A stretch of DNA of 43,750 nucleotides from Candidatus Glassbacteria bacterium (lineage in GTDB: Bacteria; Gemmatimonadota; Glassbacteria; GWA2-58-10): NCBI GenBank assembly GCA_043805105.1, contig JAZDIG010000253.1, forward strand, positions 1-43,750, written 5' to 3'. The notes below the pieces were generated by a model. It did no database searches. It was not told where the DNA came from and was given only the letters and a program-made list of their open reading frames with translations. How positions within the stretch are numbered: the stretch's first letter is position 1; every line of letters starts with the position of its first letter. This document shows positions 13,760 through 41,030 of this stretch, one piece after another. The position numbers were made by a program, and so were the translations under genes.

Positions 13760-13959
13760 AAATCCTCCGATGCAGAAAAATCTTTCGTCAGCCAAACCAT
13801 AATAACAAGATTCGTATATCATAGGCGGAACTCCTGTTAAGGTGAGACTGAAGGGCGAACTCCGTGAAAATTCCTGGCAATCCCGTTATACCTTCCAGAC
13901 TTGACCCCTGATTATTGAAGGAATATTTCGAGACAACTCAGTCATGAAAGTTTCAGCGT

Positions 13960-23934: not shown

Positions 23935-26890
23935 CAGGAAGCTCCTGAGTGCGTGGGGAATACGGATATAAAGTTCCAACCTGCGTCCAGGGAAGCGGTT
24001 CACCCCCACGTGCGTGGGGAATACTTCGAGTTCATTCATCAGTTCACCGACCGATACGGTTCACCCCCACGTGCGTGGGGAATACAAGGTGAGCATGAAA
24101 AGATTTCTGGCAGTGAGCGGTTCACCCCCACGTGCGTGGGGAATACTTCAGCAGCAGTTATATAACCACTTTCTTATCCGGTTCACCCCCACGTGCGTGG
24201 GGAATACGTCCGCTGCAAAAGGATCGTCTGCCGCGATCACGGTTCACCCCCACGTGCGTGGGGAATACGTCGTGCCGGCAGAGCCGGCTCTGGATTCGGC
24301 CGGTTCACCCCCACGTGCGTGGGGAATACTTAACAATGAGCGGGATTTCCTCGCCCATTACCGGTTCACCCCCACGTGCGTGGGGAATACGTACGGAAAA
24401 ACCCTTTGAACTGAGGAAAGTCCGGTTCACCCCCACGTGCGTGGGGAATACTCTGCCAGGAGGTCCAGCCCAGGCCGGTGCTACGGTTCACCCCCACGTG
24501 CGTGGGGAATACGTGTTCGAAGATCATACCGTCTTTGCGCTTGACGGTTCACCCCCACGTGCGTGGGGAATACTCTTTCAGGACGAAATCCTTGAACAGC
24601 ATTTTCGGTTCACTCCCACGTGCGTGGGGAATACCAGTCTTTCTACTGGGGCCCTGGGGAATAGCCCGGTTCACCCCCACGTGCGTGGGGAATACTGCTG
24701 CGCCGTTAGGGCTGCTGTTGGCCCGCCCGGTTCACCCCCACGTGCGTGGGGAATACTCCGGGCGGAGTACGGTGAGTTTCTTGCACAGCGGTTCACCCCC
24801 ACGTGCGTGGGGAATACTCCACGTCCGCATGCGGAGCAAAGAGGGGAGACGGTTCACCCCCACGTGCGTGGGGAATACGTACTTGAAACTACTTTGGCAA
24901 GTCTTCCACACGGTTCACCCCCACGTGCGTGGGGAATACGTGAGTACAAGCAATGGACTCCGGTTTCAAAACGGTTCACCCCCACGTGCGTGGGGAATAC
25001 AGGTAGACGTCCACGCTGGCCCGGGTGAGCTGCGGTTCACCCCCACGTGCGTGGGGAATACGCTGGACGGGGCGGGCGTGCTGGCGGGTGGGCGGTTCAC
25101 CCCCACGTGCGTGGGGAATACGCCCTCGTCCTCGTCCTCGCTGTCGTCCTCGGCGGTTCACCCCCACGTGCGTGGGGAATACGTGAGCCGGGCCAGTTTC
25201 CGGCTCCGTGCAATCGGTTCACCCCCACGTGCGTGGGGAATACCTTGAGGCAAACTGTTCCTCGTTGATCGCGTACGGTTCACCCCCACGTGCGTGGGGA
25301 ATACCCGTTCGGCCAGCCAATATTTTCGGTAAATCCCGGTTCACCCCCACGTGCGTGGGGAATACGCTTCGAAGTTGGTATTGTCCGCCCCGTCCCACGG
25401 TTCACCCCCACGTGCGTGGGGAATACGACCGCGACCTTGCGGGGCATTAACCGAATACCGGTTCACCCCCACGTGCGTGGGGAATACTTGAGTTCCCGGC
25501 GTATCAGCTCGATCAGGAACGGTTCACCCCCACGTGCGTGGGGAATACGTGGCGTCAAGTTCCAGGGCGCGGGCCAGGGCCGGTTCACCCCCACGTGCGT
25601 GGGGAATACTAAAGGTAGCCGTGCGTCTTTTCCTGCGTCCACGGTTCACCCCCACGTGCGTGGGGAATACATCCGCGTAATCGCGACACCGGTCGAGAAC
25701 GGCGGTTCACCCCCACGTGCGTGGGGAATACGCCTGTGCCTGAGTAACCGCGACGCGAGACGGCGGTTCACCCCCACGTGCGTGGGGAATACATTTGTTC
25801 AACCATGTCCGTCGTGGTGATCCTCGGTTCACCCCCACGTGCGTGGGGAATACCTGTCACCGGCAGCTTGGAAAGCGCAACCACCCGGTTCACCCCCACG
25901 TGCGTGGGGAATACGAATCGCTCACCACGGTCACGCCCACCTTGATCGGTTCACCCCCACGTGCGTGGGGAATACTTCAGGAAAGCGTTTACTTCACCGA
26001 CCGCTTTCGGTTCACCCCCACGTGCGTGGGGAATACAAGCCCTTGCGGCGCCAGGCCGCATCGCGCGACGGTTCACCCCCACGTGCGTGGGGAATACCTC
26101 CGATTGTTTTCAGTTTCAGGTTAACTTCTCGGTTCACCCCCACGTGCGTGGGGAATACGCCAGAAAAAGCGAGAGAGGCTTTTTTAGAACCGGTTCACCC
26201 CCACGTGCGTGGGGAATACCAATCGCTATCCTGACGATGGCTGCCTGCGTGCGGTTCACCCCCACGTGCGTGGGGAATACTTGGGGGCTTCGGCCAGATC
26301 GGCGCGGACGGCCGGTTCACCCCCACGTGCGTGGGGAATACTGGACGTGGAAGATCTCTACCAGGAAGGCATCCGGTTCACCCCCACGTGCGTGGGGAAT
26401 ACAAGCGCAAGAATGAAATCCTCCAGGCGGGCGACGGTTCACCCCCACGTGCGTGGGGAATACCACTGAGCAGGATGCGCATCCTGTGATCTCCTCGGTT
26501 CACCCCCACGTGCGTGGGGAATACGATGCTGTTGACCCGCGCGGCGTCCGTGGCCCCGGTTCACCCCCACGTGCGTGGGGAATACGCTCCTCTGGAGGAT
26601 CCTATGACGGGGGAGATCGGTTCACCCCCACGTGCGTGGGGAATACCTGGGGAAAAGTTAGGACTTGGCCGGCAGGCGCGGTTCACCCCCACGTGCGTGG
26701 GGAATACCACCCTCTGGTATGTCGGCCCGCAGTACGCCTCGGTTCACCCCCACGTGCGTGGGGAATACCGATCAGGAAGTGCGGAAGATCCGCGAACAGG
26801 CGGTTCACCCCCACGTGCGTGGGGAATACAGAAAGGAACCATCGCCCAGCTTCTTGCACAGCGGTTCACCCCCACGTGCGTGGGGAATAC
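23935..26890 (-). CRISPR. CRISPR array, type I-E-like repeat, 49 repeats / 48 spacers
   Basis: The plus-strand unit CGGTTCACCCCCACGTGCGTGGGGAATAC (29 nt) recurs every 61 nt from 23996 to 26862. The only exception is one 60-nt step at 25033->25093, which gives a 31-nt spacer. The minus-strand form GTATTCCCCACGCACGTGGGGGTGAACCG has the I-E layout: CCCCAC/GTGGGG stem, 8-nt handle ..GTGAACCG. The repeat at 23935-23963 is degenerate (only the 15 nt ..gtgcgtggggaatac are contiguous), marking the old end. One variant repeat occurs at 24606 (cacTcccacg). The leader end abuts cas2. Confidence 0.97.
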
Positions 26891-26908: not shown

Positions 26909-27184
26909 TTACGCCTTCGTTACCAGCTGAAGTCCCTCAAATTCCCTTACCTTCCGGCTGGTATCTCCCCAAGCGTCTATCTTGAAACCCTGCTCGTTAT
27001 TTGTGGTCCAGATCAGCATACAGGCACCACATTCACCAGACTTGTAGCGGACCTTATCCCATAATTTATCTCTGACCAGTGCGCTCAGATTGCCGATGAA
27101 TACTCCGCTCTTCGGCTCAATCATCCATCTGCTTAATTCTCCTTTCAATGATGGACTAACCCGTTCCAGGATCATCAGCACCAT
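26909..27184 (-). CDS. cas2: CRISPR-associated endoribonuclease Cas2 (I-E type)
   Basis: 'MVLMILERVSPSLKGELSRWMIEPKSGVFIGNLSALVRDKLW' aligns with E. coli YgbF '[41 protein letters not shown]'. ATG 27184 is preferred because GGAGGG lies just upstream. An alternative ATG is at 27196. The gene overlaps the cas1 3' end. Confidence 0.85.
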   Translation of the reverse strand: MVLMILERVSPSLKGELSRWMIEPKSGVFIGNLSALVRDKLWDKVRYKSGECGACMLIWTTNNEQGFKIDAWGDTSRKVREFEGLQLVTKA

Positions 27185-28157
27185 CTGTCCCTCCATCTTC
27201 TATTTCATCTGCTGATGGTTCCCCGCCATATCCCCTGCCCCCGGCTACCGGGCCGCGGTTTGGGTCCCACAGTCCTCCAGGGGCTGCCGGGTCGGTATCG
27301 AAATCCGGCTCGGCTGCATCATCCCGCGCCGGTGTGACATCCAGCGCGTAATCGATATCAGCCACAATCTTTTTCAGCAAGCCGCCGGCGGCGAAACTAT
27401 CACGGCAGCGGTAGCGAACTTCCCGTTCGAGGTTAGAGCTGCATTCTGCAGTGGTCTTGAATGCGACCGGTATTGTCAGGTTTACCTTGTACAAATCCGC
27501 TATGTCGTACACAAAAGACAGCTGCTTGCCCGTATGGATAAAGCCAAGTCCGGGAGAATAGCCGGCACTGATGATGGCAGCATGGCATATTCCATATAGG
27601 CAGCTGTTGGCAGCCGATAGCGCCCTGTTCACTCGGTCTGTCGCTTTCCAGTTGTTTCTCTCATAGCTCCTGCCGACCCAAGGCACGCCGGTTTCCCTGG
27701 AGGCGTTGGCATAGGCATCCCGGACCCGAACTCCTTCGCGACCCCTGATCTGCTCGATGGTCAGTGTCTCGGGCAGCGACTCCGGGAAGCGCATCCCATA
27801 CAAACGGCGTACCACCTCCAGCCGGGTGCTCCTGCGGCTGCTCAGGCTGGCTTGTTTGAGAAGGTTGTTGGCATGTCGAGTCTCACCCATTCCTGTTGCG
27901 TAAAATCTTATCCCTTGCTCGCCGCACCAAGCCACCAGGCAGCCGTTATCCGCAAGAGTCATCACTGCCGCGTGGGTTATTGTAGTACCAGGTCCAACCA
28001 TCAGCAGGCTTAGAGTAGCACAGGGAACAGGTGTAATTCCCTGCTGGTCGTGAATTGCGATGGCCTTTGTCTCCTGGTCCACCCGGCAATGCTCGATATA
28101 CATGAAGCTTAGCTTATCCCTGACCTTGGGCAGCTCGTGAAGGTCTTTTATTCTCAT
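27156..28157 (-). CDS. cas1: CRISPR-associated integrase Cas1 (I-E type) with acidic C-terminal tail
   Basis: 'LKDRVS/KVRDKLSFMYIEH', 'GPGTTITHAAVMTLADNGCLVAWCGEQGIRFYA', 'SAANSCLYGICHAAIISAGYSPGLGFIHTGKQLSFVYDIADLYK' and 'EVRYRCRDSF' match E. coli Cas1 block for block. Confidence 0.92.
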   Translation of the reverse strand: MRIKDLHELPKVRDKLSFMYIEHCRVDQETKAIAIHDQQGITPVPCATLSLLMVGPGTTITHAAVMTLADNGCLVAWCGEQGIRFYATGMGETRHANNLLKQASLSSRRSTRLEVVRRLYGMRFPESLPETLTIEQIRGREGVRVRDAYANASRETGVPWVGRSYERNNWKATDRVNRALSAANSCLYGICHAAIISAGYSPGLGFIHTGKQLSFVYDIADLYKVNLTIPVAFKTTAECSSNLEREVRYRCRDSFAAGGLLKKIVADIDYALDVTPARDDAAEPDFDTDPAAPGGLWDPNRGPVAGGRGYGGEPSADEIEDGGTDGADDPGTG

Positions 28158-28168
28158 GTTACCACCGA

Positions 28169-29095
28169 TCAGGAAGAAGGGCGGCTGGGCGCTACAGATA
28201 TCAGCCCAAATCCGAAGGCTTTGCCCGGACCGATTCCACGGATGAGGATCTCCTTCAATCGCTCGGGGTCGGTGACCCGGAGAATCCCCTCGTAGCGAAC
28301 GGAACGCGGGCGGGCCTCATCATACTTCCGTTTGTCTTCCCGCTCCTCTGTCGATCCGTTCCCCGGTTTCTTGAAATAGCTATATCCTGGTTGAACGGTG
28401 ATGAAATCCCTTTCGAGAGAGAACCCTGATATTTCAGCTTGGTGAGCAAGCCAATCAAGGAGCTTAGAGCAGATAAAGGTGCGCACATCTTCATTGGGAT
28501 TGTCGCGGTGCCATTTCTCAATCTCATCCACACTAGGCACTGGGATACGCTTGCCGTGACGTCCTTTGACTGCCCTAAGTTCATCTTTGGTATAGCCCAG
28601 GCGCTCCTTCTTTTTAATGGTGCCGATCTTTTTTGTCGGATTCGCCACAAACCGGAATCGAAGGCGCTGACCTTCAGTAAAGCAGGGATCGATTTCCTTG
28701 CACTCCCAAGGAGCCGCCAGAAGATGACTGGCGTTGTGAAAGGCATAATCCCAATCTGGTTTCTTGGCGGACTGCACGAGGATCACCACCCGGCCGCCGG
28801 GCTGCGGATCGATGCGAAATAGAAAGCCCCGGTCCACATCCCGTCGAGCGTGTACGTCCTTGAGTATTTCCTGCTCAACTTCCTTGGCGGATCGGTCGGC
28901 CAGATGCCGCTGCTCGGGGAAGTCCTCCGGGCAGTACGGAGACAGAAAGTCCCTGTCAGTGCTTTTGCGTGAATCAGACGGGAACCCCATGCACAGGCGC
29001 TGATGGACCCGGTAGAGGTTCCGCAGCCACAGCCGTCCGGGTCGTGGGCGGTCAGGGTTGTCGCCTACATCGATTGTAAGACGAGAAAGGAACAT
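28169..29095 (-). CDS. cas6e: Cas6e (CasE/Cse3) pre-crRNA endoribonuclease, enlarged (308 aa)
   Basis: 'MFLSRLTID....LRNLYRVHQRLCMGFP' and C-terminal 'YEGILRVTDPERLKEILIRGIGPGKAFGFGLISVAP' match E. coli CasE 'MYLSKVII..RDLYQLHQGLWHLFP' and 'FEGVLTINDAPALIDLVQQGIGPAKSMGCGLLSLAP'. The ATG directly follows the cas5 stop (TAAATG). Confidence 0.88.
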   Translation of the reverse strand: MFLSRLTIDVGDNPDRPRPGRLWLRNLYRVHQRLCMGFPSDSRKSTDRDFLSPYCPEDFPEQRHLADRSAKEVEQEILKDVHARRDVDRGFLFRIDPQPGGRVVILVQSAKKPDWDYAFHNASHLLAAPWECKEIDPCFTEGQRLRFRFVANPTKKIGTIKKKERLGYTKDELRAVKGRHGKRIPVPSVDEIEKWHRDNPNEDVRTFICSKLLDWLAHQAEISGFSLERDFITVQPGYSYFKKPGNGSTEEREDKRKYDEARPRSVRYEGILRVTDPERLKEILIRGIGPGKAFGFGLISVAPSRPSS

Positions 29096-30208
29096 TTATA
29101 ACTCCTTTCGCGCAGTTCTTAGCAATTTGCGCCGTTGGCCATAGCGTCGCTCTTTGAGATTGCGCTCTATCTGGCGACGTATCATCTGGCGTTGGGCCGG
29201 ATCCGAGGGATCGAGCCGCCGCCTCCGCATATCTCCACCATACTCCAGCATGGTGCAGGCATCGTGGCATGTCTTGCAAAGGGATCGAAGCCATTCATTA
29301 GTTTCTGGTTTCGAATAGTCAACATGATGCACATCTCTGGCTGGCGCCTTGCAGAATACGCAGAGGCCTTGATCGAGTTTCAGACGGTTACGCCGCGCAT
29401 CATCCCACTGCTGAGATGTATAATCGGGCCGTCGCAGATAGAGTTTGGTAGATAGATTCTGAGTCGCTTTTCCCACTGGCGCTGTGACTTGATTTGAGAC
29501 GATCCATCGCGGATCATAACTGTAGTAAAAGCCTAAAGCTCGTGGGACATCGTATGCAAGCCGTGCGCCAGTTGGAACAGAATTCCCCTTCGGGTGCTCG
29601 ATAAAAGTGTCGAGAATGACTGATGCATGCGACTGGGGGTTGTCAATGGCATCAATCCTCGGGTACCAGGGGATAGAGGAAAGAGCCTCAATAACAGTCT
29701 CAAAATGCCCGAGACCTGCAAAGACCGGCTCAGACGGGACGCAACACTTACGGCCGAGGAAGACCGGCCATTTAGGGTTTTTTACCCAATCAGCACAAGC
29801 GTTGACCGTGTCGGGAGAGCCGAGGAGCGTTATCAGAAAGGATGCATCGTACAGGTATTGGCGACGGGAAAGGAGCGTCTCGTATTCACGGGTCGATGGA
29901 GTCCTCTTGAGACCCCCGTCCTTGCCGTCTGCACGGCGTATGCCGATTTTGGCTCCAGCCGTTTGGTAATCCCAGGCCAAGCTTCCAGCACGGTCCACTC
30001 GGACTCCCATGAACAGTTCCGTAAGCGGCTTGAGATGTTGCGGAGATTCTTCGCGACTGATCCCCTTGGCACAAAGCAACATCCCCAATACGCCGGATTT
30101 GCTCGGATAGGCGTCAGTACGACGTAACTGGAAGCGTGACGAGGTTCCCCAGGACTGCATGGGACCAGCCAGGCGCAGGAACAGAGTATTGTTGTCATCT
30201 TTACTCAT
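29096..30208 (-). CDS. cas5: Cas5e (CasD) fused to a C-terminal HNH nuclease domain and Arg-rich tail
   Basis: Start taken at ATG 30208, which has GGAG 8 nt upstream and lies 4 nt after the cas7 stop. 'LFLRLAGPMQSWGTSS...YPSKSGVLGMLLCAKGI' and 'RRQYLYDASFLITL..PVFLGRKCCVP' match E. coli CasD 'LILRLAGPMQAWGQPT..FPTRSGLLGLLGACLGI' and 'REYLCDASFTVAL..TPYLGRRSCP'. After about 240 aa comes 'CVFCKAPARDVHHVDYSKPETNEWLRSLCKTCH', a CxxC..HH..N..CxxCH HNH motif. The protein ends with 'RRRRLDP..RRQIERNLKERRYGQRRKLLRTARKEL'. Confidence 0.88.
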   Translation of the reverse strand: MSKDDNNTLFLRLAGPMQSWGTSSRFQLRRTDAYPSKSGVLGMLLCAKGISREESPQHLKPLTELFMGVRVDRAGSLAWDYQTAGAKIGIRRADGKDGGLKRTPSTREYETLLSRRQYLYDASFLITLLGSPDTVNACADWVKNPKWPVFLGRKCCVPSEPVFAGLGHFETVIEALSSIPWYPRIDAIDNPQSHASVILDTFIEHPKGNSVPTGARLAYDVPRALGFYYSYDPRWIVSNQVTAPVGKATQNLSTKLYLRRPDYTSQQWDDARRNRLKLDQGLCVFCKAPARDVHHVDYSKPETNEWLRSLCKTCHDACTMLEYGGDMRRRRLDPSDPAQRQMIRRQIERNLKERRYGQRRKLLRTARKEL

Positions 30209-30212
30209 ACAA

Positions 30213-31484
30213 TTACTCCGCTCTTTCATGCGTGGATATAAGAACAGTGACTGAATGAATGAGATCATCCAGTGTGCCGACTCGTTCAGCGTTTTTGGAC
30301 TCGACCGAAGCTGGTCCTACGGCCAGAAGTACCCTGCGCATATCAGCCGGCGAGAAGGCCGCCGCGATAACCTCAACGTACTCCTTCATCGCCTTTGCGG
30401 ATTCAGTCATCAGGTTTCGATCAGTCCCGCCTTCCACAGGCTGAAGAAACGCATTGGCATAACTGAGCGGTCGCTTTGAGTTGGACACTTCGACGAGAAT
30501 TAGTTCGGGGATGGAGTGCGCGGCAAACCCACTTTGCTTCCCGGTGGGGGTTGCGTAACAGGCGGCATTAATCAGAACACCTGCCACTCGCGCGGCATCC
30601 TTGCTGCTCAGGGTTGGAAGGTGCTTCCTCAAAGCATCGACGTCAAAATTAAGATACTTATAATAAACCGCCGCGTTAAAGTACGTCTCGGTCTCACCAG
30701 AGCCGAGATACGCCGCACCGGATTTTTCAGTCTGGGTTGATGCATAACTGCTTTTCAAATCATCCATCGCAGTGAAGTAGTCGCTCTCGATAAACGTCTC
30801 GTGAGTGCTTATCGCGTGGGCAACCTGGCACGCCGCCTCAACGTTAACAACCAGATCGCTGGTTGTCATTCTTCCGAACAGGCCGATATCAACCGTTAGA
30901 GAATTGCTTGCGATGGACGCCTCCTCGATAAAATGCTTAATCGATTTATCAAGTGCCTTCTTTTCTTCCTTCGAGGGCTTTTTCCCCTGCTTGATGAACC
31001 AATCGTAGGCTGCGCGATTACTTTTTCTGAATTCGGCTATCAGCCCGGCAATGCTGTGAGCAAAGGGTGGGGGAAAGAAAACCAGTTGGGAAGTCTTACC
31101 GTCCTCATCGCCCACCGATGTCAATGTCTCGGGTTCGTCTTTTTCATCACCATCAGCCGGGGTATCCCCGGTGTCGCGGTCATCCCCCTTGAATTTCCCG
31201 GCCAATGCGTTCATGAGTTTATCTATCTCATCGCCAGGAACGCCAAGGTTCCCCTTTTTAAGTTCGTCGGCTACCATCCGCGGCAGGTATTGCGTTCTGA
31301 CCGCGAGGTCATCACCGAAAACTTCCTTGAACTGGGGTGACAGGCGAATGTTTCGCTTCAGGCATTGGCTGCTAATACGGCCACGAGTCACTCCCCCAAA
31401 CAGACATTTTTTCGGCTGTCCGGTTTCGTCACGGTTAAGATTGCCTGGCGGCATGCTCTGGAGCATATGAATCTGAACAAACAT
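30213..31484 (-). CDS. cas7: Cas7e (CasC/Cse4) Cascade backbone subunit, enlarged (423 aa)
   Basis: 'FVQIHMLQSMPPGNLNRDETGQPKKCLFGGVTRGRISSQCLKRNIR' matches E. coli CasC '[45 protein letters not shown]'. 'GLFGRMTTSD...HAISTH' matches 'ALSGRMATSG..HAITTH'. A strong SD (AAGGAGGAGG) precedes the ATG. Confidence 0.92.
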   Translation of the reverse strand: MFVQIHMLQSMPPGNLNRDETGQPKKCLFGGVTRGRISSQCLKRNIRLSPQFKEVFGDDLAVRTQYLPRMVADELKKGNLGVPGDEIDKLMNALAGKFKGDDRDTGDTPADGDEKDEPETLTSVGDEDGKTSQLVFFPPPFAHSIAGLIAEFRKSNRAAYDWFIKQGKKPSKEEKKALDKSIKHFIEEASIASNSLTVDIGLFGRMTTSDLVVNVEAACQVAHAISTHETFIESDYFTAMDDLKSSYASTQTEKSGAAYLGSGETETYFNAAVYYKYLNFDVDALRKHLPTLSSKDAARVAGVLINAACYATPTGKQSGFAAHSIPELILVEVSNSKRPLSYANAFLQPVEGGTDRNLMTESAKAMKEYVEVIAAAFSPADMRRVLLAVGPASVESKNAERVGTLDDLIHSVTVLISTHERAE

Positions 31485-31513
31485 GAGAACCTCCTCCTTT
31501 AGTGAGTGGAACT

Positions 31514-33139
31514 TTAAAGCAGTCGATCAAGGCTAAAACAGAGGCCCGCCCAGTCGACTTTTTCTGGCATTCGCCGACGCATATTACTGTCGAGGGCGCT
31601 ACGAAGAGCGGCTTCCAGTCTTTGGCCGCGCGGGAATGAAACCGGGTACGGTGAATGGAAAGTTCGGCCCTGGTGGCGCTCGTCAGGTTGTCGCCTCAGC
31701 AATGAGCGCAACAGACAGAAAGTAGCATCAGCACGAGGAATGCGGGCGCGAGAGGGTACAGCGGCCATGAGCTTTAACACCAGCCACGCCACGTTTGGCG
31801 AAGGAAGCCCTTTTACAGTCCGGCGCAGCGGCCAGAGCAGACCAGTCAGGATGTCGAAAGCCGCTGGAGATTCTTGCATCTCCAGGTATGCGGCGGATGA
31901 CAATACAACCCAATCCGAATGCATGAGATGCCGAACCGCCGACAGTACAAACCGCTCTGAACCAACAGAACGAGATTTCTGTAGTGGTATCTTCCATCCG
32001 TCGAATCCCGTGGGTTTGTTATCAGGTTGCTTATTGTGAAGCATGTCCAGGGAAGGGTTAGTCAATTCAAGCTGTCGATGATCAAATGTCTTGTTATCAC
32101 TACCTGTGCAGGGAATTACCAAGTACCAAGACTGGTGGTCAGGATTTTGCACACAAACAGCCGCTTTAAAATCCGCACCCGAAAAGAGCAGGTCGCAGTC
32201 TTTCACAGCCAGCTCCTCACGCGTGCTTTTCATCGTCTTATAAGGATTTCCTTCGGTGTAAAAGGCTGCGGGGTCTTTCCACATAAAGGACTTTTTATCT
32301 GGGGTCTTCTTTGTCTCCTCGTTCTTCATATACACTATCGACTCGACTACGCTGCCGGGTTGGCCGCATCCCCAGCAGATTTGCGTGTTTTGAGACAATG
32401 AAAGTCGGATGCGCCTGGGGTTCCATGTAAACGCCTCCATATAAGGAATTGCTCTATCCTTAGCGGTTGGCTTAAAATAACCAGTCCACATTGGAGTGCC
32501 TGCAACACCGGTAAGGGGAACGAGATTAAGGCCAAGCGTGTTCGCCAGGTTGTTCCCGGAGGCGATTGCCACTATCGGAGGAGCACCGTGTATGGAAGGA
32601 GTCAGTCCTTGGCCGCCTGATTGGGTCCACGGGACGATACGGAGCATGCCGATTGTCGCACACCGCAAGCAAAGGCGCATGTTTTTGTCGTCACCGTGAT
32701 GAAAATGAGCGATGTTGCTGCCAGTCGCGAACTCGGCGAACAATGAGCCGACTGACTTGATTGTCGAGGTTTTCCTTTGAGCAGAAGGGTCTTGCAGAAA
32801 TGGGGCTGTTTCATCAAACATTCTGAAGTAGCCTTCTTCTTTTTCAATGGACTCAAGGACTTCTTGCGGCACTTCATCCCTTAGCAGCGATCCGCGGACT
32901 TTTTGCACCCCTCCCGCTTCATCAGCCTTCCAATAAAGCAGTGTCAGAAGAAAACGGTGTGCAGAAAAAAAATCGAGGGGACTCGCGAAAGCAAGGCAGT
33001 GCATTTCTCTTGCCCTTCTCAATGCATCCAGTGGAGAGTAGACCATCTCCACGGCATATTGATTAATCAACTTCAACCATGGGCTGGTAAGAACATTCCA
33101 GTTCGCTCCCTGGCAGAATTCTTTCACTGTATCAGACAT
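31514..33139 (-). CDS. cas8e: Cas8e (Cse1/CasA)-like large subunit
   Basis: First gene of the operon, about 541 aa from ATG 33139 (GGAG 6 nt upstream; the track's TTG 33169 is less likely). The N-terminal 'NVLTSPWLKL....SPLDAL....ASPLDFFSAHRFLLTLLYW' follows the Cse1 N-terminal pattern (N-L-[IL]-x-x-x-W-[IL]-P-V ... hydrophobic LL..L). The remainder was not matched to a motif from memory. Confidence 0.7.
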   Translation of the reverse strand: MSDTVKEFCQGANWNVLTSPWLKLINQYAVEMVYSPLDALRRAREMHCLAFASPLDFFSAHRFLLTLLYWKADEAGGVQKVRGSLLRDEVPQEVLESIEKEEGYFRMFDETAPFLQDPSAQRKTSTIKSVGSLFAEFATGSNIAHFHHGDDKNMRLCLRCATIGMLRIVPWTQSGGQGLTPSIHGAPPIVAIASGNNLANTLGLNLVPLTGVAGTPMWTGYFKPTAKDRAIPYMEAFTWNPRRIRLSLSQNTQICWGCGQPGSVVESIVYMKNEETKKTPDKKSFMWKDPAAFYTEGNPYKTMKSTREELAVKDCDLLFSGADFKAAVCVQNPDHQSWYLVIPCTGSDNKTFDHRQLELTNPSLDMLHNKQPDNKPTGFDGWKIPLQKSRSVGSERFVLSAVRHLMHSDWVVLSSAAYLEMQESPAAFDILTGLLWPLRRTVKGLPSPNVAWLVLKLMAAVPSRARIPRADATFCLLRSLLRRQPDERHQGRTFHSPYPVSFPRGQRLEAALRSALDSNMRRRMPEKVDWAGLCFSLDRLL

Positions 33140-33170
33140 TTGACACTCCATCTGATTGATCACTGGCAAC

Positions 33171-33413
33171 CTAATTGCCGGTAAGTTTGCTTGTGCGGCC
33201 AGTTAAATCTCCTTCTCTGCATAAGTTATCTTTACACCAGTAGAGAAGCGCGAGCAGGAACCGGATAACCGCAAACCGGTCCATCGGATTGGACGCAGCC
33301 ACCTGCCGTATCCGGCCAGCTTGGGTGAGTGCCTCCATGATTCCCACCCTACTGTTCTTTCCATCGGCCCACAGAACGGGAATCCACTGCTCATCGAGCA
33401 AGTTGTAGCTCAA
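33171..33413 (-). CDS. 80-codon ORF encoding a second, more canonical Cas8e N-terminal segment (fragment or possible pseudogene)
   Basis: 'SYNLLDEQWIPVLWADGK..GIMEAL....ASNPMDRFAVIRFLLALLYW' is a canonical Cse1 N-terminus (compare Thermus 'FNLIDEPWIPV'). It aligns without gaps over 60 aa to residues of the downstream full-length Cas8e. TTG start with AAGGAG 6 nt upstream. It ends at TAG 33171-33173, in a different frame from cas8e. Confidence 0.45.
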   Translation of the reverse strand: MSYNLLDEQWIPVLWADGKNSRVGIMEALTQAGRIRQVAASNPMDRFAVIRFLLALLYWCKDNLCREGDLTGRTSKLTGN

Positions 33414-33840
33414 GAGGAACTCCTTTCTGGCCTGAAGGTATTGGATAAGAACTCAAGGTCTTAAATGAACAATCAAGGTCAACCTCTTTTCATTCGTCCT
33501 ATTCACCTCCTTATTGCCAGATCGCTTTCATTCAGGCCGGGTAGTCCAGCATTACGACTCAGCTTGCCGAGTGATTCCATCATCAAGAATGCCGGAAAAT
33601 AAGCGATTATCGATCAGGAGAAGTCTGAGGGGGATAATTTATTATATAACGTATATCGTGATAACGCTATGCCTTGCGATGGAAAGTCTACTGATTAGAT
33701 TAATTGTATGCCATTTGCTGTCTTTTTACACAGTCTTGCTTGATTTATATCTTAATAAAAAGAAGTTTGTTGAGAATAATTCCTTGTATTCGCTTGTTTT
33801 TTCCCCTGAAGCAAATAAATCAGCCAGCAAAGGACGAAAA

Positions 33841-34392
33841 ATGAACGCCAAACTATCAGTTGACCCCAAGAAACTGAAAGACGCATTAAAGAAGATCAAA
33901 CTGTCAGACCGCAGATTTTCAGTGGGAGAGGCGGCTTTTTCTTTCAATGATGGCTGGTTGGAATTACAGGCACAAGGAGTTTCAGTTCAAATCACTGCCT
34001 CTGGAACCTGGCCCGGAAGGGTGCGAGTGAGCTTGTACAATCTCAGACCAATGCTTTCACATCCGCCGAAGGAAAATCCTTTGCTTATTCGTTTCCAGGA
34101 CGACCTTTTGTTTTTCGGTTCGTACTCTGTTTCTGCCCAATGGGAGGATATCAGCCCGCAGCCAGAATTAATTCCGATGGGCCTGTCATGGGTAGAGCTG
34201 TTGAAGCTAAGGTTCGAGTATCCAGAAGCGGCACTGATAAGCTCGGGAATGGCCCCAAAAATCGCTATGGCCGAGAAAAAATTTGAAATCAGGATTTCCA
34301 AAGCTGCGGCTCTTCTGGTCGAGACGGGAGTTAAGGAACAGGATCTGATGGAATTGGTTGTAGGTAAATTGGGAGAATCAAAAAAACGTTAG
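33841..34392 (+). CDS. Hypothetical protein (183 aa)
   Basis: The track ORF 33514..34392 starts at TTG inside an AT-rich, low-complexity stretch. ATG 33841 ('MNAKLSVDPKKLKDALKK') is the first plausible start. No family recognised. Confidence 0.5.
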   Translation: MNAKLSVDPKKLKDALKKIKLSDRRFSVGEAAFSFNDGWLELQAQGVSVQITASGTWPGRVRVSLYNLRPMLSHPPKENPLLIRFQDDLLFFGSYSVSAQWEDISPQPELIPMGLSWVELLKLRFEYPEAALISSGMAPKIAMAEKKFEIRISKAAALLVETGVKEQDLMELVVGKLGESKKR

Positions 34393-34466
34393 AATTATTC
34401 GGGTCGAAAGATGGTATTTTCCGGAATTTTCGGACACCTTAAAAACACGCACGCGAGGGCCGTGCA

Positions 34467-34495
34467 TTGACGAGACCTCGCAAATTTTTGATATT
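34467..34495 (+). promoter_or_regulatory. Sigma70-like promoter (TTGACG-N17-GATATT) followed by a tandem 9-mer
   Basis: TTGACG at 34467-34472, a 17-nt spacer, then GATATT at 34490-34495. The tandem direct repeat GTTGAGCAA GTTGAGCAA (34514-34531) lies between this and the ATG at 34551/34560. Confidence 0.3.
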
Positions 34496-34550
34496 AAGGT
34501 GGTGTAAAGTTTTGTTGAGCAAGTTGAGCAACTGATTCCACTGTTGAAGG

Positions 34551-34991
34551 ATGTGCGCAATGAGCGAATTGCTGCGAGAAAACGAGTTGCCGGACAACCA
34601 GCGGGCCAAAGCACTGTACGAGAAGGCGACCAAGGGGGAGCGGCCCGACCCACGCTTCCTGTACGCCCTGGCCCTGGCGTTGCTCCCGGTGAACGAGGAA
34701 CTGGAGAAAATCAGCCAGCGCCTGGAGGACTTCCTGTTCAACGTCCTACTCCAGAAGTCGGAGGCGGACTACCAGGCGCTGATGTGGAGCATCCTGCTAA
34801 ACATCCCGAAGGACGAGGCGGGGGAACCGGGGCAGCAGGAGCCGTTCCTGGTAGACCCGCAGGAGAAAAACCCGTACACGGCGGCCTACAGCCTACTGAC
34901 GTTGGTGGCCGAGCGCCTGAAAAGCCTGAATCCGTCAGTAAACCCACACGTCTGGAAACGGGACGAGCTGCTGGAGCTGGGGCAGCGATAG
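34551..34991 (+). CDS. Hypothetical protein (143-146 aa)
   Basis: 'MSELLRENELPDNQRAKALYEKATKGERPDPRFLYALALALLPVNEELEKI' looks like a real helical protein. The overlapping 34544..35014 frame is Pro/Gly/Ala-rich and is judged an artefact. The start could be ATG 34560. Confidence 0.5.
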   Translation: MCAMSELLRENELPDNQRAKALYEKATKGERPDPRFLYALALALLPVNEELEKISQRLEDFLFNVLLQKSEADYQALMWSILLNIPKDEAGEPGQQEPFLVDPQEKNPYTAAYSLLTLVAERLKSLNPSVNPHVWKRDELLELGQR

Positions 34992-35126
34992 CCGAAGAAG
35001 AAACCGTGGAATAAATTAGCTCGCAATAAAACAAAGTCGCAGTCATAGTCTACCAAATACCTGATATGGCTGGCGGCGGAGTAGACAAACTAACCACCGA
35101 CACAGGATTTTAATTCCGCTGCTGCT

Positions 35127-35750
35127 CTACATTTGATCTTGAGCGCCATTTCTCACAATCTCCAATCCCTGCTTTTTCCGGTGGGCGTCCAGCCGCTGTT
35201 GAGCCAGCTCCAGTTGCTTGCCCAAGTCAGGCCGCTCTTCCTTGCGCGCCTTGTCGATAAACTTGCCGAGCACCCGGCCGTAGAGCTCCAACGCCTTCTC
35301 CTTGCTCGCGAATGACAGCTCCATGCGCTCTTCCACAGCCTCCCCGAGCTTGGTCGGGTAGCGCCGCACGGTACGCCGCACGCTCTTGATCGCGGCCGCC
35401 GTCTGGTCGTCGATGTCGGCGCTCGACTTGAAGGTCACGCCGGCATCCGTCCACTCGACGGCACGGCGTATATCGAACACGCACAGCCGGGCCAACTCCT
35501 GCATCCAGCGCTCAGAGTCCAGATCGATCTTTTTCAGTAGCTTGGTAGTCAACTCATTGATGCGCGCGCGAATCTCAGGTTTTTTCAGCAGTCTATTAGC
35601 AAGTGTCGCTGCCGAATTGCGTGCCAGATGCGACCGCAAATCCAAAGCAGCCACGGTTCCGTTGCGTTTCTGCTTGAGGTACTCGTGGCAGAATTCTTCC
35701 TCGAAACTACTCAATCCACACTTATTGGTTGCATGATCTTGCGTTGACAT
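35127..35750 (-). CDS. Phage terminase small subunit (Terminase_2 / P27-like)
   Basis: 'FCHEYLKQKRNGTVAA...SAATLANRLLKKPEIRARINELT....ERWMQELARLCVFDIR' matches the terS pattern F[C]xEYLxxxNxTxAA...A...LLxxPxIxxxI...vlxELaxIAFxD. ATG 35750 is preferred; the track's start at 35771 is a TTG. Confidence 0.75.
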   Translation of the reverse strand: MSTQDHATNKCGLSSFEEEFCHEYLKQKRNGTVAALDLRSHLARNSAATLANRLLKKPEIRARINELTTKLLKKIDLDSERWMQELARLCVFDIRRAVEWTDAGVTFKSSADIDDQTAAAIKSVRRTVRRYPTKLGEAVEERMELSFASKEKALELYGRVLGKFIDKARKEERPDLGKQLELAQQRLDAHRKKQGLEIVRNGAQDQM

Positions 35751-36125
35751 ATTTGCATCCCTTCTTATCAAATTTTAAGCGCCAACTTATCAAAACCTTA
35801 CCGGTTTTGGTAATTTCACCCTGATAGCTTAGTTATCTGAATGTGTACATCTTGATCTTTCTCTCTAATTCATGCAGTCTACATACTTCTGCCCCTTTTG
35901 TTCAATCTTGTAGGAATTGAAATTAGTAGTCGCAAATGTCGAACAAAGAATTAATTCAGTCTCCACAATAGACGATTACTTTGCCAGACCTTGCCAAAAT
36001 CCATGTGAATTCTTGGCAATCTTGTGAGTTCTTGACAATCGACCCGAAAACGAGCAAATGCGGCAGCCATGCGGCTTTGGGTTTGTTTTCAACAGGTTAC
36101 GAGTTTTCTAATAATACCATAACTA

Positions 36126-36175: not shown

Positions 36176-36427
36176 TAGATTGACAAGGGCTTGCAAGGCT
36201 TTGCAGGTCCTTTTAATTTTCCGCCTGAACGGCTCCTCCGCGCTATTCCCCTCACAAACAGTTATCTTCAGAAGCAGTCCATCCCCGAGATTGCTATCCG
36301 GCGCCGGCCGGTATAATGTTGGATAAGAACCTCGAAGACCAGCCTGCCTCAGGATCGGAGGATTTTCAACCTCAAACCGGAGGATCGAAACTTGTTACCG
36401 TTCCAAAGACCAATACCCCATTCTCAA

Positions 36428-38794
36428 ATGCATTTTTTCCAGGGCGATAGGCTTGCCAGGCTGCTTTGTGCTATATTCCTGCTGTTCGTTTCCGCTCAGG
36501 GCACAGCCGCGCAAACCTCGGGGGCAAAACTGTCGGAGCGAGAAAAATACCTGGAAGAGCTTCTCGGCTTCCTCCCCCCGGTCCGCACGGACCGGGGCAT
36601 GGTCACCCGTTTCGACACCACCTGGCTCCAGTGGCAGAAACGCACCGGCGAACTTCCGCCCGATTTCGACAGGATGCCATCGCTACCGTTTCTTCCAGAC
36701 CCGCTCGTCCTAGATGAGGGCGGACAGAACATCCCGGTCAGGACCATCGAACAGTGGCGGGAGAAAAGGGCCTGGATCGAGAGCCAGGTCAAATACTGGC
36801 TGTCCGGGACTTTCCCTCCTGCGCCGGACAACCTGCTGGCCGAAACGCTCAGCGAGGAAACCTCGGGGACTGTCACCTCCCGGACAGTCGAGCTGCGGTT
36901 CGGGCCCGGGCACAAGGCCGGGCTGACCGTGGAACTCCTTATTCCGCAGGGGGAAGGTCTCTTTCCGGTTTTCCTCACCCAGTGGAGCCATCGCAACTGG
37001 GCCCTGGTGGCCGTGCGACGGGGATATCTCGCCTGCATCTACGCCGGCGCGGATGAAAAGGACGATACCGAGGGCTATGCCGAGCTCTGGTACCCGGAGT
37101 ACGATTTCACCCGGCTGATGCGCCGGGCCTGGGGCGCTCACCGGGCCGTGGACTACCTCTACAGCCTACCGGTCGTGGACCGGGAAAAGATCGCGGTCAC
37201 CGGGCACTCGCGTAACGGCAAGCAGTCGATCCTGGCCGGCGCTTTCGACACCCGGATTACGGCGGTCATGCCGATCAGCGGAGGGACAGGCGCGGAAGTC
37301 CCCTACCGCTACACGGATGACAAGTTCGCCAATGAGACGATCCTCGAAATCACCTCGAACACGCCCAACTGGCTGCATCCGCGTCTGCGCTTCTTTGTCG
37401 GCCGGGAACACAAGCTGCCGGTGGACCAGAACCTGCTCATGGCCCTGATCGCACCGCGCGCCCTGCTGGTCAGTTCGGCCCTCACCGAATACGGCGGCAA
37501 TCCCTGGGGTATCGAACAGAACTACCGGTCGCTCCAGCGGGTCTACAAATTCCTGGGGGCCGAAAACAAGCTGGCGATCGACCTGCGCTACGGGACGCAC
37601 TGCCCCTCCGCCGGCGACATCGAAAACAACCTCGATTTCCTGGACTACGTTTTCGGCCGCACGAGCCGGGCCCCGCAGAACACCCTCTATTACAACTACA
37701 CTTTCGAGGATTGGCGCAAGGCCAGCGGGGAACAAATCGATCCTCTCGCCTTCCCGGAAAAGGGCCTGGACGACCTGCTCACCGACAGCCAGGGACGGCG
37801 CTTCGATTCATTGCCGGCCTGGCAGGAGAAAAGGAAAGACGTAATCGGCCGGATAAAGCAAGCCCTGGGACATCAACCGCCGGCAGCGCTGAACCCGGGG
37901 CCGCAGCGGTTTTACTCCGGGGCGGACGACGACTGGCTGGGGATGGTGATCGGCAGGCCGGAAGCCACCGAGACCATGGGCCGGCTGGTGGTCCACCCCT
38001 ACGGCGGGTCATTCGGCGATGACCTGTTCGGCTATCTCTACTACCCGAACACCGGAGACGGCGGCCTGCCCAAGAACCGTCTGCCCGCGGTGGTCTTCCT
38101 GCACAATTTCGCTTACCCGACAGGCTTTTCCAGCCTGAACGACCGGTTCGTGGAAAATATGGTCAGGCAGGGATATATCGTCTTCGCTTTCGACATGATC
38201 GGGTTCGCCAGCCGGATCGAAGAGGGCCGGCGTTTCTACGAACGCTACCCGCACTGGTCCAAGATGGGCCGGATGGTGGCCGACGTCCGGGCTGCCGTGG
38301 ACCTGCTGCAAAACCAGCCGTTTGTCGACCCCGGCCGCATCTTCACGGTGGGCTATTCGATAGGCGGGACCGTGGCCCTGTTCAGTTCTGCGCTGGACGA
38401 GAGGATCGCGGGCGCGGTGTCGGTCTGCGGGTTCACCCCCCTGCGCCCGGCCGGGCCGGACAAGGGCCTGGAGGGAGTCCAGGTCTATTCGCACCTGCAC
38501 GGCCTGATCCCGAGACTGGGCTTTTTCGTGGGGCAGGAGAGAAGAATCTCCTTCGATTTCCACGAGGTGCTGGCCCTCATTGCGCCCCGACCCCTGCTGG
38601 TAGTGGCCCCGACCCTGGACCGCGACTCCTGTTTTGCGGATGTGAAGACTTGTGTGGACGAAGCGGGCAAGGTCTACCGGCTGTTCGGAAGAGAAAACAA
38701 CCTCGGCTTTTCCGGGCCGAAAGACTACAACCATTTCCATAACAACCTGCAGCAGGAAGTGCTCGAATGGTTGGCCGCAAATCCTGGGCGGTGA
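36428..38794 (+). CDS. Two-domain secreted esterase: CE15-like glucuronoyl esterase domain + second alpha/beta-hydrolase domain
   Basis: ATG 36428 gives the signal peptide 'MHFFQGDRLARLLCAIFLLFVSAQGTAAQ'. 'VTGHSRNGKQSILA' resembles the CE15 G-[CH]-S-R-x-G-K nucleophile motif. The C-terminal half has a second elbow, 'VGYSIGGTVAL'. Confidence 0.6.
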   Translation: MHFFQGDRLARLLCAIFLLFVSAQGTAAQTSGAKLSEREKYLEELLGFLPPVRTDRGMVTRFDTTWLQWQKRTGELPPDFDRMPSLPFLPDPLVLDEGGQNIPVRTIEQWREKRAWIESQVKYWLSGTFPPAPDNLLAETLSEETSGTVTSRTVELRFGPGHKAGLTVELLIPQGEGLFPVFLTQWSHRNWALVAVRRGYLACIYAGADEKDDTEGYAELWYPEYDFTRLMRRAWGAHRAVDYLYSLPVVDREKIAVTGHSRNGKQSILAGAFDTRITAVMPISGGTGAEVPYRYTDDKFANETILEITSNTPNWLHPRLRFFVGREHKLPVDQNLLMALIAPRALLVSSALTEYGGNPWGIEQNYRSLQRVYKFLGAENKLAIDLRYGTHCPSAGDIENNLDFLDYVFGRTSRAPQNTLYYNYTFEDWRKASGEQIDPLAFPEKGLDDLLTDSQGRRFDSLPAWQEKRKDVIGRIKQALGHQPPAALNPGPQRFYSGADDDWLGMVIGRPEATETMGRLVVHPYGGSFGDDLFGYLYYPNTGDGGLPKNRLPAVVFLHNFAYPTGFSSLNDRFVENMVRQGYIVFAFDMIGFASRIEEGRRFYERYPHWSKMGRMVADVRAAVDLLQNQPFVDPGRIFTVGYSIGGTVALFSSALDERIAGAVSVCGFTPLRPAGPDKGLEGVQVYSHLHGLIPRLGFFVGQERRISFDFHEVLALIAPRPLLVVAPTLDRDSCFADVKTCVDEAGKVYRLFGRENNLGFSGPKDYNHFHNNLQQEVLEWLAANPGR

Positions 38795-39275
38795 GGCGCT
38801 GTTGTGGAAATGGCGATGAATACTGGATATGCACTTGCTTTTCTACCTGTTAGCGATACACTTAAGTAGTAATTGATTCGACCGACAGAAAGGAAGAGCA
38901 TGCCTAACCGGTTTACCCATGAAGAAGCAGCGCAGTACATCAAGATAGGCAGGCGTGGCGGTTCTATTTGAATAAGTAGGCCTATGGCTCAGGGCAGGGA
39001 AGTTGGAGAAAAAGGCAAACAACACATATTAGGGAATGACTTATGAGCGAAGGAGCGAACATTAGGCAAGCCTGGAATGCCTTGAGAGCAACCTTCCAGA
39101 CACCAACTACCGATTTACTTTTAGAGTCATATATGATACGCTACTTCGAGAGGTAGGGACTCAACGTAATACCTCGTTTGGCTGTTCAATTCAACGTCAT
39201 TGATCGAAACAGCTTGGCAGCTTAATCGCAACTTAGCTAAATTATTGGAAAGTTTGATCAGAATGAGAATAAAGA

Positions 39276-39920
39276 ATGCCATTTCCCAAAATTGGAACAA
39301 TTGAAGCTTTTGCAATGATAGTTGATATAAATGGCTTTACGCCGATGGTATCAAAGTCGACAAAAAGTGACTGTGTCGCTCAATTTGTCAGAGATGTTCT
39401 ATCGGGGGGCGTTTGCATTGTTGAAAAAAACGGTGGTTTTGTCACTAGTTTCATGGGCGATGCCTTTTTAGGCATATTAGATAACCCTGATTCAGTTTTT
39501 ATGTCATGTGTAGGAATAGCTAAAGATCTTGATCGGCAGTGCGAATATATATCTAACCATCAGAAGGAATATCTCAATGATTTGCATTATGTTAAAGGTG
39601 GAGCGGGATTAAAAATCGCAATAGAATATGGTTGGATAGACATTTCAACTATCTATAGTGACCTGCTCGGAGAACAAAGGTTGCTAATTGGGCCACCTAT
39701 TAATTATGCAAGCCGGATTTTATCAGTTGGAGTAGGAAATAGGTGTCTCGTCGGACCAGAAGCAATGAATAATCAAGGGATGAATCAATGGAACAATAAT
39801 GGACCTTATTCTGTAATTGTTAAGCCAAGCGAAGGCGATTTACTATATTGGGAACTGGACTTAGGAGATATTTGGAGAGAAGGAATAATTGAGAATGATG
39901 AGGAAACATATTGGGGATAA
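39276..39920 (+). CDS. Stand-alone class III nucleotidyl cyclase catalytic domain (214 aa)
   Basis: 'AFAMIVDINGFTPM' supplies the first metal Asp, 'GGFVTSFMGDAFLGIL' the second, and 'IGPPINYASRIL' the Asn/Arg of the N-x-A-S-R motif. These occur in the order and spacing of adenylate/guanylate-cyclase-type domains. No sensor or TM domain. The gene sits in an AT-rich islet. Confidence 0.7.
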   Translation: MPFPKIGTIEAFAMIVDINGFTPMVSKSTKSDCVAQFVRDVLSGGVCIVEKNGGFVTSFMGDAFLGILDNPDSVFMSCVGIAKDLDRQCEYISNHQKEYLNDLHYVKGGAGLKIAIEYGWIDISTIYSDLLGEQRLLIGPPINYASRILSVGVGNRCLVGPEAMNNQGMNQWNNNGPYSVIVKPSEGDLLYWELDLGDIWREGIIENDEETYWG

Positions 39921-40005
39921 AGTGTGATCTTTCTAATCTAATACATCTGACTCAAGCTTTGTTGTACTTCACGCAATATACCTTAATTTAGAGGCTATAA
40001 CTACT

Positions 40006-40815
40006 ATGAATTTCTCAGAGATTGAAAAAGAAGTAATTTACTTAAGAGCCGTTAAGGAGATTGTGGACTCAATGGTGAATTATGAGGTGCTTAATTTAAT
40101 TGGAAATGATCCTGATTCAGAAATTAGATTTAAATCGAGTATACACCAGAAATTTTTCAATATTATTTTGGTGGATTTTTTTTCGTCCCCAGGTAAGAAA
40201 TTTATTATAAAACAGCAGCCATATTTAGAAATCCTATTTTTGATATGCCAGAAACCGAACTTCAACGAAAACGGGTCTATTAATAATCTTGTATTGTCAG
40301 TTGAAGAGTTTAAAAATTGGCTTGAGCAGGAAATTAAAGAGGAGATTTGGTTGCCTTCAATAGAAATGAATGGAGTCTTGTCACTAAAAAGAATTGAGTT
40401 TTTAAAAATATGCGGAAATATTTCAAAACATAATTTTACTAGATTGTCTATTGCAGTGAAGCAGCTTGAGCAGATTTTTAAAAGAAATAAGTTAAGTATT
40501 GATTGTGAAGACGCCTTGCTTATTCTTGATGAATTTTACGAGATATATCATACAGATATTTTCAATTATCTCGGTAGTACTATTGCTGAGTTTCTTAATA
40601 ATATTAGATGGGGTATATATTATTATCTCCAGCCAGAGTTTTCGCGCTCAATAAAATGGGAGAGTGGAGATCCGCCAAAATATAAGTATACATACCCAAA
40701 GGGTTTAATAAATAAGTTTGCAAAAAGTTGCTATTTGAAGTTGATGAATGAAGTACGTAGTGAACCATACATGAGAAAATTCAAAGTTACAGAGATATTG
40801 AAACTAAGATATTAA
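40006..40815 (+). CDS. Hypothetical protein (269 aa), partner of the cyclase
   Basis: AT-rich ORF 85 nt downstream of the cyclase on the same strand. No TM segments, TIR, cNMP-binding (FGE..RxA) or canonical HEPN R-x4-6-H motif recognised. 'ICGNISKHNFTR' is only HEPN-reminiscent. Confidence 0.55.
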   Translation: MNFSEIEKEVIYLRAVKEIVDSMVNYEVLNLIGNDPDSEIRFKSSIHQKFFNIILVDFFSSPGKKFIIKQQPYLEILFLICQKPNFNENGSINNLVLSVEEFKNWLEQEIKEEIWLPSIEMNGVLSLKRIEFLKICGNISKHNFTRLSIAVKQLEQIFKRNKLSIDCEDALLILDEFYEIYHTDIFNYLGSTIAEFLNNIRWGIYYYLQPEFSRSIKWESGDPPKYKYTYPKGLINKFAKSCYLKLMNEVRSEPYMRKFKVTEILKLRY

Positions 40816-41030
40816 GCTATAAGGATAGGGAAATTAAGTGTGCTTGACAGGCCTTAGTCTGACAGTTCATATTTGACTGGCTATATCAAATTTAGCATCG
40901 CTTACCGCTTCCCTCACAAAAACTTGTATTCTCTCAAAATTTATGGTATGATAATTAAAATCGGATTCATTCGGCAAGACGTTTTAAATGGCGTTATGCC
41001 TTACGCTTCAACAAGTTAAAGGTTTATTAT

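Follow-up and report, generated by a model that had tools for sequence, protein, structure and literature searches.

Do the two adjacent genes in a short AT-rich islet of a Candidatus Glassbacteria genome form a two-gene antiphage system, or are they neighbours with separate functions? The islet occupies positions 38795-41030 of the 43,750-nt stretch of DNA that was analysed (contig JAZDIG010000253.1 of assembly GCA_043805105.1; this whole stretch is referred to as the window). A first-pass annotation, made from the sequence alone, had read its two genes, encoding a minimal class III nucleotidyl cyclase (gene 1) and a 269-aa protein (gene 2), as a possible new variant of the cyclic-pyrimidine (Pycsar-type) cyclase and effector pair. 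One part of that claim stood, in that gene 1 is by sequence a member of the bona fide Pycsar cyclase (PycC) family, but the pair itself is not a conserved module. Elsewhere the two genes occur apart; in the islet they are probably just adjacent and do not make up a new two-gene defence system, and the claim that they form a new Pycsar variant is weakened. Our preferred reading, to which we assign a probability of roughly 0.55, is that the islet is a recently acquired patch whose two accessory genes, each probably with a role in defence, are independent of each other, the cyclase lacking a canonical effector and gene 2 being self-sufficient. The parts of the islet are:

38795..39275, + strand: non-coding leader (GC 0.44) with two short unsupported open reading frames (ORFs) and one sigma-70-like site at 39214-39243
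39276..39920, + strand: gene 1, a 214-aa minimal class III nucleotidyl cyclase of the PycC family, assigned from PADLOC, an AlphaFold2 (AF2) model, Foldseek and invariant residues
39921..40005, + strand: spacer of 85 bp, without a terminator-like hairpin or a + strand promoter-like site
40006..40815, + strand: gene 2, 269 aa, of a large uncharacterised stand-alone family, described from its relatives, an AF2 model and invariant residues
40816..41030, + strand: AT-rich non-coding tail that extends to the start of the MgtC/DUF4010 gene

The sharp drop in composition first reported from single 60-nt lines (about 30% GC at 40141, about 60% at 37501) was reproduced, with measured values of 0.30 and 0.60. 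GC is 0.361 in the islet (composition statistics were taken on 38820-41020) and 0.548 in the remaining window; the islet ranks lowest among the window's 2.2-kb windows (z = -5.5 against all others), and the profile falls from about 0.62 to 0.30-0.39 across 38,800-41,030. The left edge, 38794, is the stop of an 800-aa glucuronyl-esterase/alpha-beta-hydrolase gene and the right edge, 41031, is the start of the MgtC/DUF4010 gene. GC at third codon positions (GC3) is 0.30 in gene 1 and 0.32 in gene 2 versus 0.76-0.79 in the flanking genes. Given its low GC and low GC3 relative to these genes, the islet DNA is, as judged by composition, foreign and little ameliorated, which fits recent horizontal acquisition, the origin already proposed in the first-pass annotation.

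The sigma-70-like site is the sole + strand promoter-like site in the leader and lies 5' of gene 1, although this is a consensus match that may not apply to the host. The two short ORFs reported to precede the pair (38900-38971 and 39043-39156) do exist, but because they have neither a family match nor conservation in any related locus we treated them as spurious; they are probably not genes. No similarity between the leader and any related locus was found, and no known RNA family was found in the leader or the rest of the window. At the islet we found no flanking direct or inverted repeats, no tRNA serving as an integration site and no remaining mobility gene; its intergenic regions contain no attC-like sites, and no integron integrase gene is present among the ORFs annotated in the window. 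A candidate for the same chromosomal site without the cyclase (L007) was rejected, because the esterase gene matched there in tblastx only at the level of noise (E = 1.3).

Co-occurrence of the two genes across genomes, the check that the first-pass annotation had itself proposed, was not observed. We examined 87 loci with gene 2 relatives, 56 of them with at least 800 bp upstream and 60 with at least 800 bp downstream, and none contained a gene 1 relative (by tblastn) or any class III cyclase (by family HMM). From the cyclase side, a gene 2 relative was present in 0 of 10 other distinct contexts of gene 1 relatives; the neighbours in these contexts are mutually unrelated, with PycTM present in two of the ten. 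Likewise, gene 2 has no recurrent neighbour, the biggest neighbour cluster spanning 7 of 88 loci. Similarity to the closest cyclase loci (84% nucleotide identity) covers exactly 39275-39919, and the match to gene 2 relatives is confined to about 40001-40823. Profile comparison of gene 2 with the genes that lie downstream of the cyclase at other loci gave no domain in common. Taken together, these sequence comparisons indicate that the pairing of cyclase and gene 2 is not conserved. Pycsar systems are recognised by an adjacent cyclic-pyrimidine receptor-effector, either PycTM or a cyclic-nucleotide-binding domain fused to TIR or transmembrane segments, and by a cyclase and effector that form a conserved operon across genomes; neither was found for gene 1 and gene 2, and tblastn detected no PycTM remnant in the window.

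Two further leads were considered and set aside. A cryptic domain common to gene 2 and a 237-aa protein of locus L088 was indicated at E = 0.061 over N25 and D57 of gene 2, and disappeared with a 19-sequence profile. The proteins P0158 and P0086 appeared to lie on one contig of 2,626 bp; the two have separate sources, P0086 has a JGI twin on a contig of 2,603 bp, and the apparent linkage seems to be a coincidence.

What kind of cyclase, then, does gene 1 encode? Against the Pfam cyclase model it scored E = 0.012 (15.7 bits), under the gathering threshold of 21.9 bits, and against the PADLOC PycC model PDLC02367 it scored E = 3.4e-7. PycC models were matched by 31 of 34 sampled gene 1 relatives (best E = 6.4e-12), and the family profile matched the Pycsar cyclase BcPycC (7R65) at E = 9e-5. 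The decisive evidence comes from relatives with PycTM directly downstream, which identifies the gene 1 family as bona fide Pycsar cyclases: in L102-L104 a relative at 54% identity to gene 1 is followed after 25 bp by a Pfam PycTM gene, and in L105 a relative at 60% identity is followed by one after 4 bp. The structural searches agreed, in that the AF2 model of gene 1 (pLDDT 93.7) had the class III cyclase CyaC as its best Foldseek match (E = 7e-14, TM-score 0.71-0.78) and 188 PDB matches at E <= 0.001, of which the listed top 50 were all class III cyclases.

The catalytic set is complete. The metal-binding Asp residues D17 and D62, the Asn/Arg transition-state pair N143/R147 and the phosphate-binding Lys K183 are invariant across 34 sequences of the family and align to their equivalents in CyaC and BcPycC, and the N143-Y-A-S-R147 motif is intact. 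Domain and transmembrane searches found no further domain, no sensor domain and no transmembrane segment, which bears out the initial description of gene 1 as a bare catalytic domain; in being a single-domain cyclase it resembles Pycsar clades B-E (PMC11224242). The position that specifies purines through a Lys, four residues before the second metal-binding Asp, is S58 in gene 1 and S, G, N or A across the family; it is Lys in CyaC and Ala in the clade B enzyme BcPycC, so that gene 1 lacks the purine-specifying Lys as BcPycC does. The base-selecting residues reported for clades B, D and E are Y50/D94/R97, F60/K104/F109 and F100/R142/Q144 (PMC11224242), whereas gene 1 has I15, S58, M60, A63 and L65 at these positions. 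Since the known base-selecting residues are not kept, the product cannot be inferred from them.

Could gene 1 instead be a housekeeping cAMP or cGMP cyclase beside an unrelated cellular protein? It shares with class III cyclases such as CyaC of Spirulina platensis (1WC0/1WC1) and Cya2 (2W01) the fold, the two metal-binding Asp residues, the Asn/Arg pair and the C-terminal Lys, and JGI labels its relatives, of which at least 215 were found, 'class 3 adenylate cyclase'. It differs from adenylate and guanylate cyclases of this class in having no sensor, membrane or other regulatory domain, in having S or G at the position of the purine-specifying Lys (as BcPycC has Ala there, unlike the Lys of CyaC), in its sub-threshold Pfam score, and in the location of its relatives, some of them in PycC-PycTM operons and others in defence or mobile islands. 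The foreign composition of the islet and the patchy distribution of both gene families across phyla point the same way, and we consider an ordinary physiological role very improbable.

Apart from the loci with PycTM, the cyclase relatives were found in defence or mobile settings. Examples are:

L088: cyclase relative with an integrase and a HEPN-like gene
L091: cyclase relative with CHAT, PIN and Y1 transposase genes
L096: cyclase relative with a restriction-modification operon, in Spirosoma radiotolerans
L097: cyclase relative with MazE/PIN and a transposase
L099: cyclase relative with a Gabija-like OLD/UvrD pair and AbiJ

In two of these loci the gene downstream of the cyclase differs strongly from it in GC3 (0.69 versus 0.37 in L088; 0.57 versus 0.34 in L091), which makes adjacency an unreliable guide to partnership in this cyclase clade. 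Comparison of gene 1 with the same two loci, which have no PycTM, gave dN/dS values of 0.20 (L088) and 0.12 (L091). The gene 1 clade is thus, by these ratios, under purifying selection in non-canonical loci, and the signal is presumably read by something. That a clade of Pycsar-type cyclases is maintained by purifying selection in eight or more different contexts without a recognised Pycsar effector means either that cyclic-mononucleotide receptors of a new kind exist or that the clade needs no dedicated neighbour, and either would extend the known scope of cyclic-pyrimidine signalling.

Such selection also bears on whether the islet is inert cargo, that is, a cyclase orphaned by loss of its effector beside a selfish or neutral passenger, with no defence role in this host. 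The failure to find either a canonical effector or a PycTM remnant in the window would be expected from an orphaned cyclase, and the 480-bp non-coding leader with only spurious short ORFs and the lack of any mobility gene or flanking repeat are also consistent with it. However, neither ORF is truncated or disrupted and every conserved residue is kept, dN/dS in the cyclase clade is 0.12-0.20 at non-canonical loci, and the unameliorated GC3 implies a recent arrival and therefore little time for decay. Inert cargo seems quite unlikely on this evidence.

Several further features were observed at the cyclase loci. An AT-rich two-gene islet in L095 (5001-6181) holds a cyclase and an unrelated 162-aa gene, with GC3 of 0.22 each and flanks of 0.57-0.64; its architecture parallels that of the window, with a different second gene. 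On L105 (622-8263), three Guanylate_cyc proteins (306, 214 and 261 aa), PycTM and an nSTAND2-like protein are all encoded on the same strand, and this multi-cyclase island may represent stacked Pycsar-type systems. On L102 (5001-8109), and also on L103, a TIR_2 protein of 428 aa is encoded no more than 620 bp downstream of a canonical PycC-PycTM pair, an arrangement that recalls the reported co-occurrence of Pycsar and Thoeris (NAR 2026, PMC13069673). R-x4-H motifs are encoded upstream of two cyclase relatives (RNDCAH in L088, 739-1173; RNKAVH in L096, 3435-4307). The L088 protein (144 aa, HEPN-like) has weak HEPN matches in Pfam (E = 0.005) and a GC3 of 0.32 compared with 0.37 for the cyclase, and it may be an alternative partner of the cyclase.

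In the case of gene 2, profile and structure searches of the kind that placed gene 1 returned nothing. It matched no family in Pfam, NCBIfam, PADLOC or PHROG and has no transmembrane segment, and its profile found nothing among PDB sequences. The AF2 model is a confident prediction of a mixed alpha/beta fold (pLDDT 86.3, pTM 0.86) for which Foldseek gave no match in the PDB (best E = 0.09, TM-score about 0.15) and none in BFVD. This agrees with the first description of gene 2 as a protein with no recognisable fold and no cyclic-nucleotide-binding, transmembrane or TIR module. Its family is large, with 787 relatives in a word-indexed search; an exhaustive search gave 601 clusters at 50% identity, of which 256 reached E <= 1e-30. 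Nearly every member has a single domain and a length of about 270 aa. Among members at 31-51% identity, the polar residues N25, D57, R129, K141-H142 and Y188 are invariant, a set that in sequence fits no known signature and could form an active or ligand site. Identification of gene 2 as a HEPN RNase was rejected, as R129 and H142 are 13 residues apart with no R-x4-6-H motif, and Pfam gave no HEPN match. The longest match, P0313 (711 aa), is one of few listed above 330 aa. The gene 2 domain occupies its residues 433-711, and the N-terminal part before it contains an R-N-F-C-A-H motif and gives no Pfam match; P0313 may be a true fusion protein or the product of two genes merged in gene calling. 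Deducing a function for gene 2 from fusions was set aside, as P0313 is a single case and possibly a fused gene call.

Gene 2 relatives average 9 GC points under their own flanks, and on metagenomic contigs their neighbours are housekeeping genes mixed, in qualitative terms, with MADS, retron PRTase, SIR2, Dnd/Pbe, restriction-modification and IS genes. Full-length relatives at 32-41% identity are present on eight conjugative or mobilizable plasmids, and another relative, at 33% identity, lies on a phage contig with a portal gene. Plasmid contexts include:

Phaeobacter plasmid: gene 2 relative 22 bp after an AbiEi/AbiEii pair
Sinorhizobium plasmid: gene 2 relative flanked by AbiH and AbiV, with VapBC and an integrase nearby
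Azotobacter plasmid: gene 2 relative after a nucleotidyltransferase (NTase) gene, with AbiEii, MqsA and an integrase close
Agrobacterium and Rhizobium repABC plasmids (L109, L111, L112 and L113): conserved patch directly after repC, with a 208-aa divergent gene, a gene 2 relative and a site-specific integrase

The slot next to the repABC-plasmid patch carries cargo that differs by plasmid (AAA ATPase and HNH; DUF4238; SMEK/DUF2326), and patch and slot together look like a plasmid defence hotspot. The 208-aa protein, the NTases and AbiV did not recur in other loci outside their own subclade. In L001-L087 the neighbours of gene 2 relatives are strongly co-oriented with them, 241 on the same strand and 65 on the opposite one, and many form runs of small unrelated ORFs (e.g., in L064, L067, L082 and L087). 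An origin as integron cassettes was rejected, since the 20 attC-like sites counted in gene 2 loci are at background level (17.7 for shuffled sequence, 20 for the opposite strand); one strong attC-like hairpin was seen in L022, 93 nt after the gene 2 relative (127 nt, perfect core, -48.6 kcal/mol).

These contexts invite comparison with single-gene abortive-infection (Abi) systems such as AbiV and AbiH. Gene 2 is similarly a stand-alone gene of about 270 aa, AT-richer than its host and patchy across phyla, and its relatives occur on conjugative plasmids and one phage contig beside AbiE, AbiH, AbiV, VapBC, MqsA and integrase genes. It differs in showing no sequence or structure similarity to Abi or other defence families (PADLOC, Pfam, PDB and BFVD) and in lacking the HEPN R-x4-6-H motif. 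The gene 2 family is missing from all the family libraries searched, spans many phyla, plasmids and a phage contig, has a fold without a solved match, and sits in neighbourhoods rich in abortive-infection and toxin-antitoxin genes; it is a candidate for a new single-gene defence system. A bolder form of this idea is that gene 2 founds a new single-protein antiphage or exclusion class with an unseen fold, while the PycC clade uses diverse soluble partners and has captured gene 2 here; gene 2 would then be autonomous in most genomes and cyclic-nucleotide-gated at the islet. We regard this combination as a long shot.

If the two genes are independent accessory genes, they would be neighbours through insertion at one spot and not members of a co-evolved system. 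Gene 1 would dimerise head-to-tail as other class III cyclases do and, when triggered, would turn an NTP into a 3',5'-cyclic NMP, whose base is not readable from the sequence; the reader of this signal would be encoded elsewhere or missing. Gene 2 would act alone, most likely as an abortive-infection-type or exclusion gene, with the cluster N25/D57/R129/K141-H142/Y188 as its putative active or ligand site. We infer, then, that the functions of the two genes are independent at this islet.

Several observations weigh against this reading, and most of them favour instead a working Pycsar variant, possibly unique to this genome, in which infection leads to a cyclic mononucleotide that gene 2, in place of PycTM, binds in order to kill or arrest the cell. 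Gene 2 occupies the slot held by PycTM in the canonical relatives, on the same strand and 85 bp downstream without an intervening terminator, in a family whose PycC-PycTM operons place the effector 4-25 bp downstream. The similar GC3 of the two genes fits joint arrival, but since both families are AT-rich everywhere this likeness is weak evidence. Purifying selection on the cyclase outside canonical operons suggests a reader of its signal, and the neighbouring gene is the simplest candidate. The downstream gene varies among close relatives, as expected under effector swapping, and the composition-matched cyclase and 162-aa gene of L095 suggest that the clade may use unrecognised partners. Moreover, the other distinct cyclase contexts number only ten, and the defence association of gene 2 is qualitative, made without a background comparison.

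On the other side, such a variant would have to accommodate the absence of a detectable cyclase near all 87 gene 2 relatives and the hundreds of lineages in which full-length gene 2 homologues occur without a cyclase. Cyclic-nucleotide-binding, transmembrane and TIR modules are absent from gene 2, which also has no domain in common with the other downstream partners, and the GC3 mismatches in L088 and L091 make adjacency a poor guide in this clade. Set against Pycsar itself, gene 1 matches PycC models and has relatives with PycTM directly downstream, but no PycTM, TIR or cyclic-nucleotide-binding protein adjoins it, its base-selecting positions are unlike those of clades B, D and E, and the gene that does adjoin it does not co-occur with cyclases elsewhere. 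We consider a working Pycsar variant unlikely.

A sub-variant of this alternative is a guard-type circuit, in which the constant signal of a sensor-less cyclase keeps gene 2 inactive. Panoptes (mCpol with a membrane effector) and Panoptes-like systems built on a diadenylate cyclase (DAC) are reported to share with the islet a sensor-less minimal cyclase and a single second gene. Their cyclases, as reported, belong to the Cas10-like or DAC superfamilies whereas gene 1 is class III, their effectors are membrane proteins whereas gene 2 is soluble, and the islet pairing is not conserved.

The remainder of the window gives some context for the two genes. Features between 23997 and 35771 are:

23997-26890: type I-E CRISPR array, 48 repeats of GGTTCACCCCCACGTGCGTGGGGAATAC and 47 spacers of 32-33 nt
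27156-33169, minus strand: cas operon including Cas1, Cas6e-like, Cas5, Cas7 and Cse1
33514-34392 and 34544-35014: ORFs of 292 and 156 aa with no Pfam or PHROG match
35127-35771, minus strand: small terminase subunit gene (Terminase_2, E = 3e-20)

The setting of the islet is defence-rich, with 5.6 kb separating it from the type I-E CRISPR-Cas locus, and relatives of both genes occur in defence-rich sites, an association that for gene 2 is qualitative. CRISPR spacers compared with the islet and every fetched locus gave only chance matches of 14-18 nt. A second patch of lower GC (0.38-0.42) extends over 33400-35800, between the cas operon and the esterase gene, and may be a phage or satellite remnant. 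Elsewhere in the window are:

6060-7271: PorV-like gene
10643-13822: SusC-like TonB receptor
16534-18537 and 36392-38794: glucuronyl-esterase/acetyl-xylan-esterase-type genes
21655-23793: GH20 gene

The esterase, SusC-like, PorV-like and GH20 genes suggest a host of the Bacteroidota/FCB type that degrades polysaccharides.

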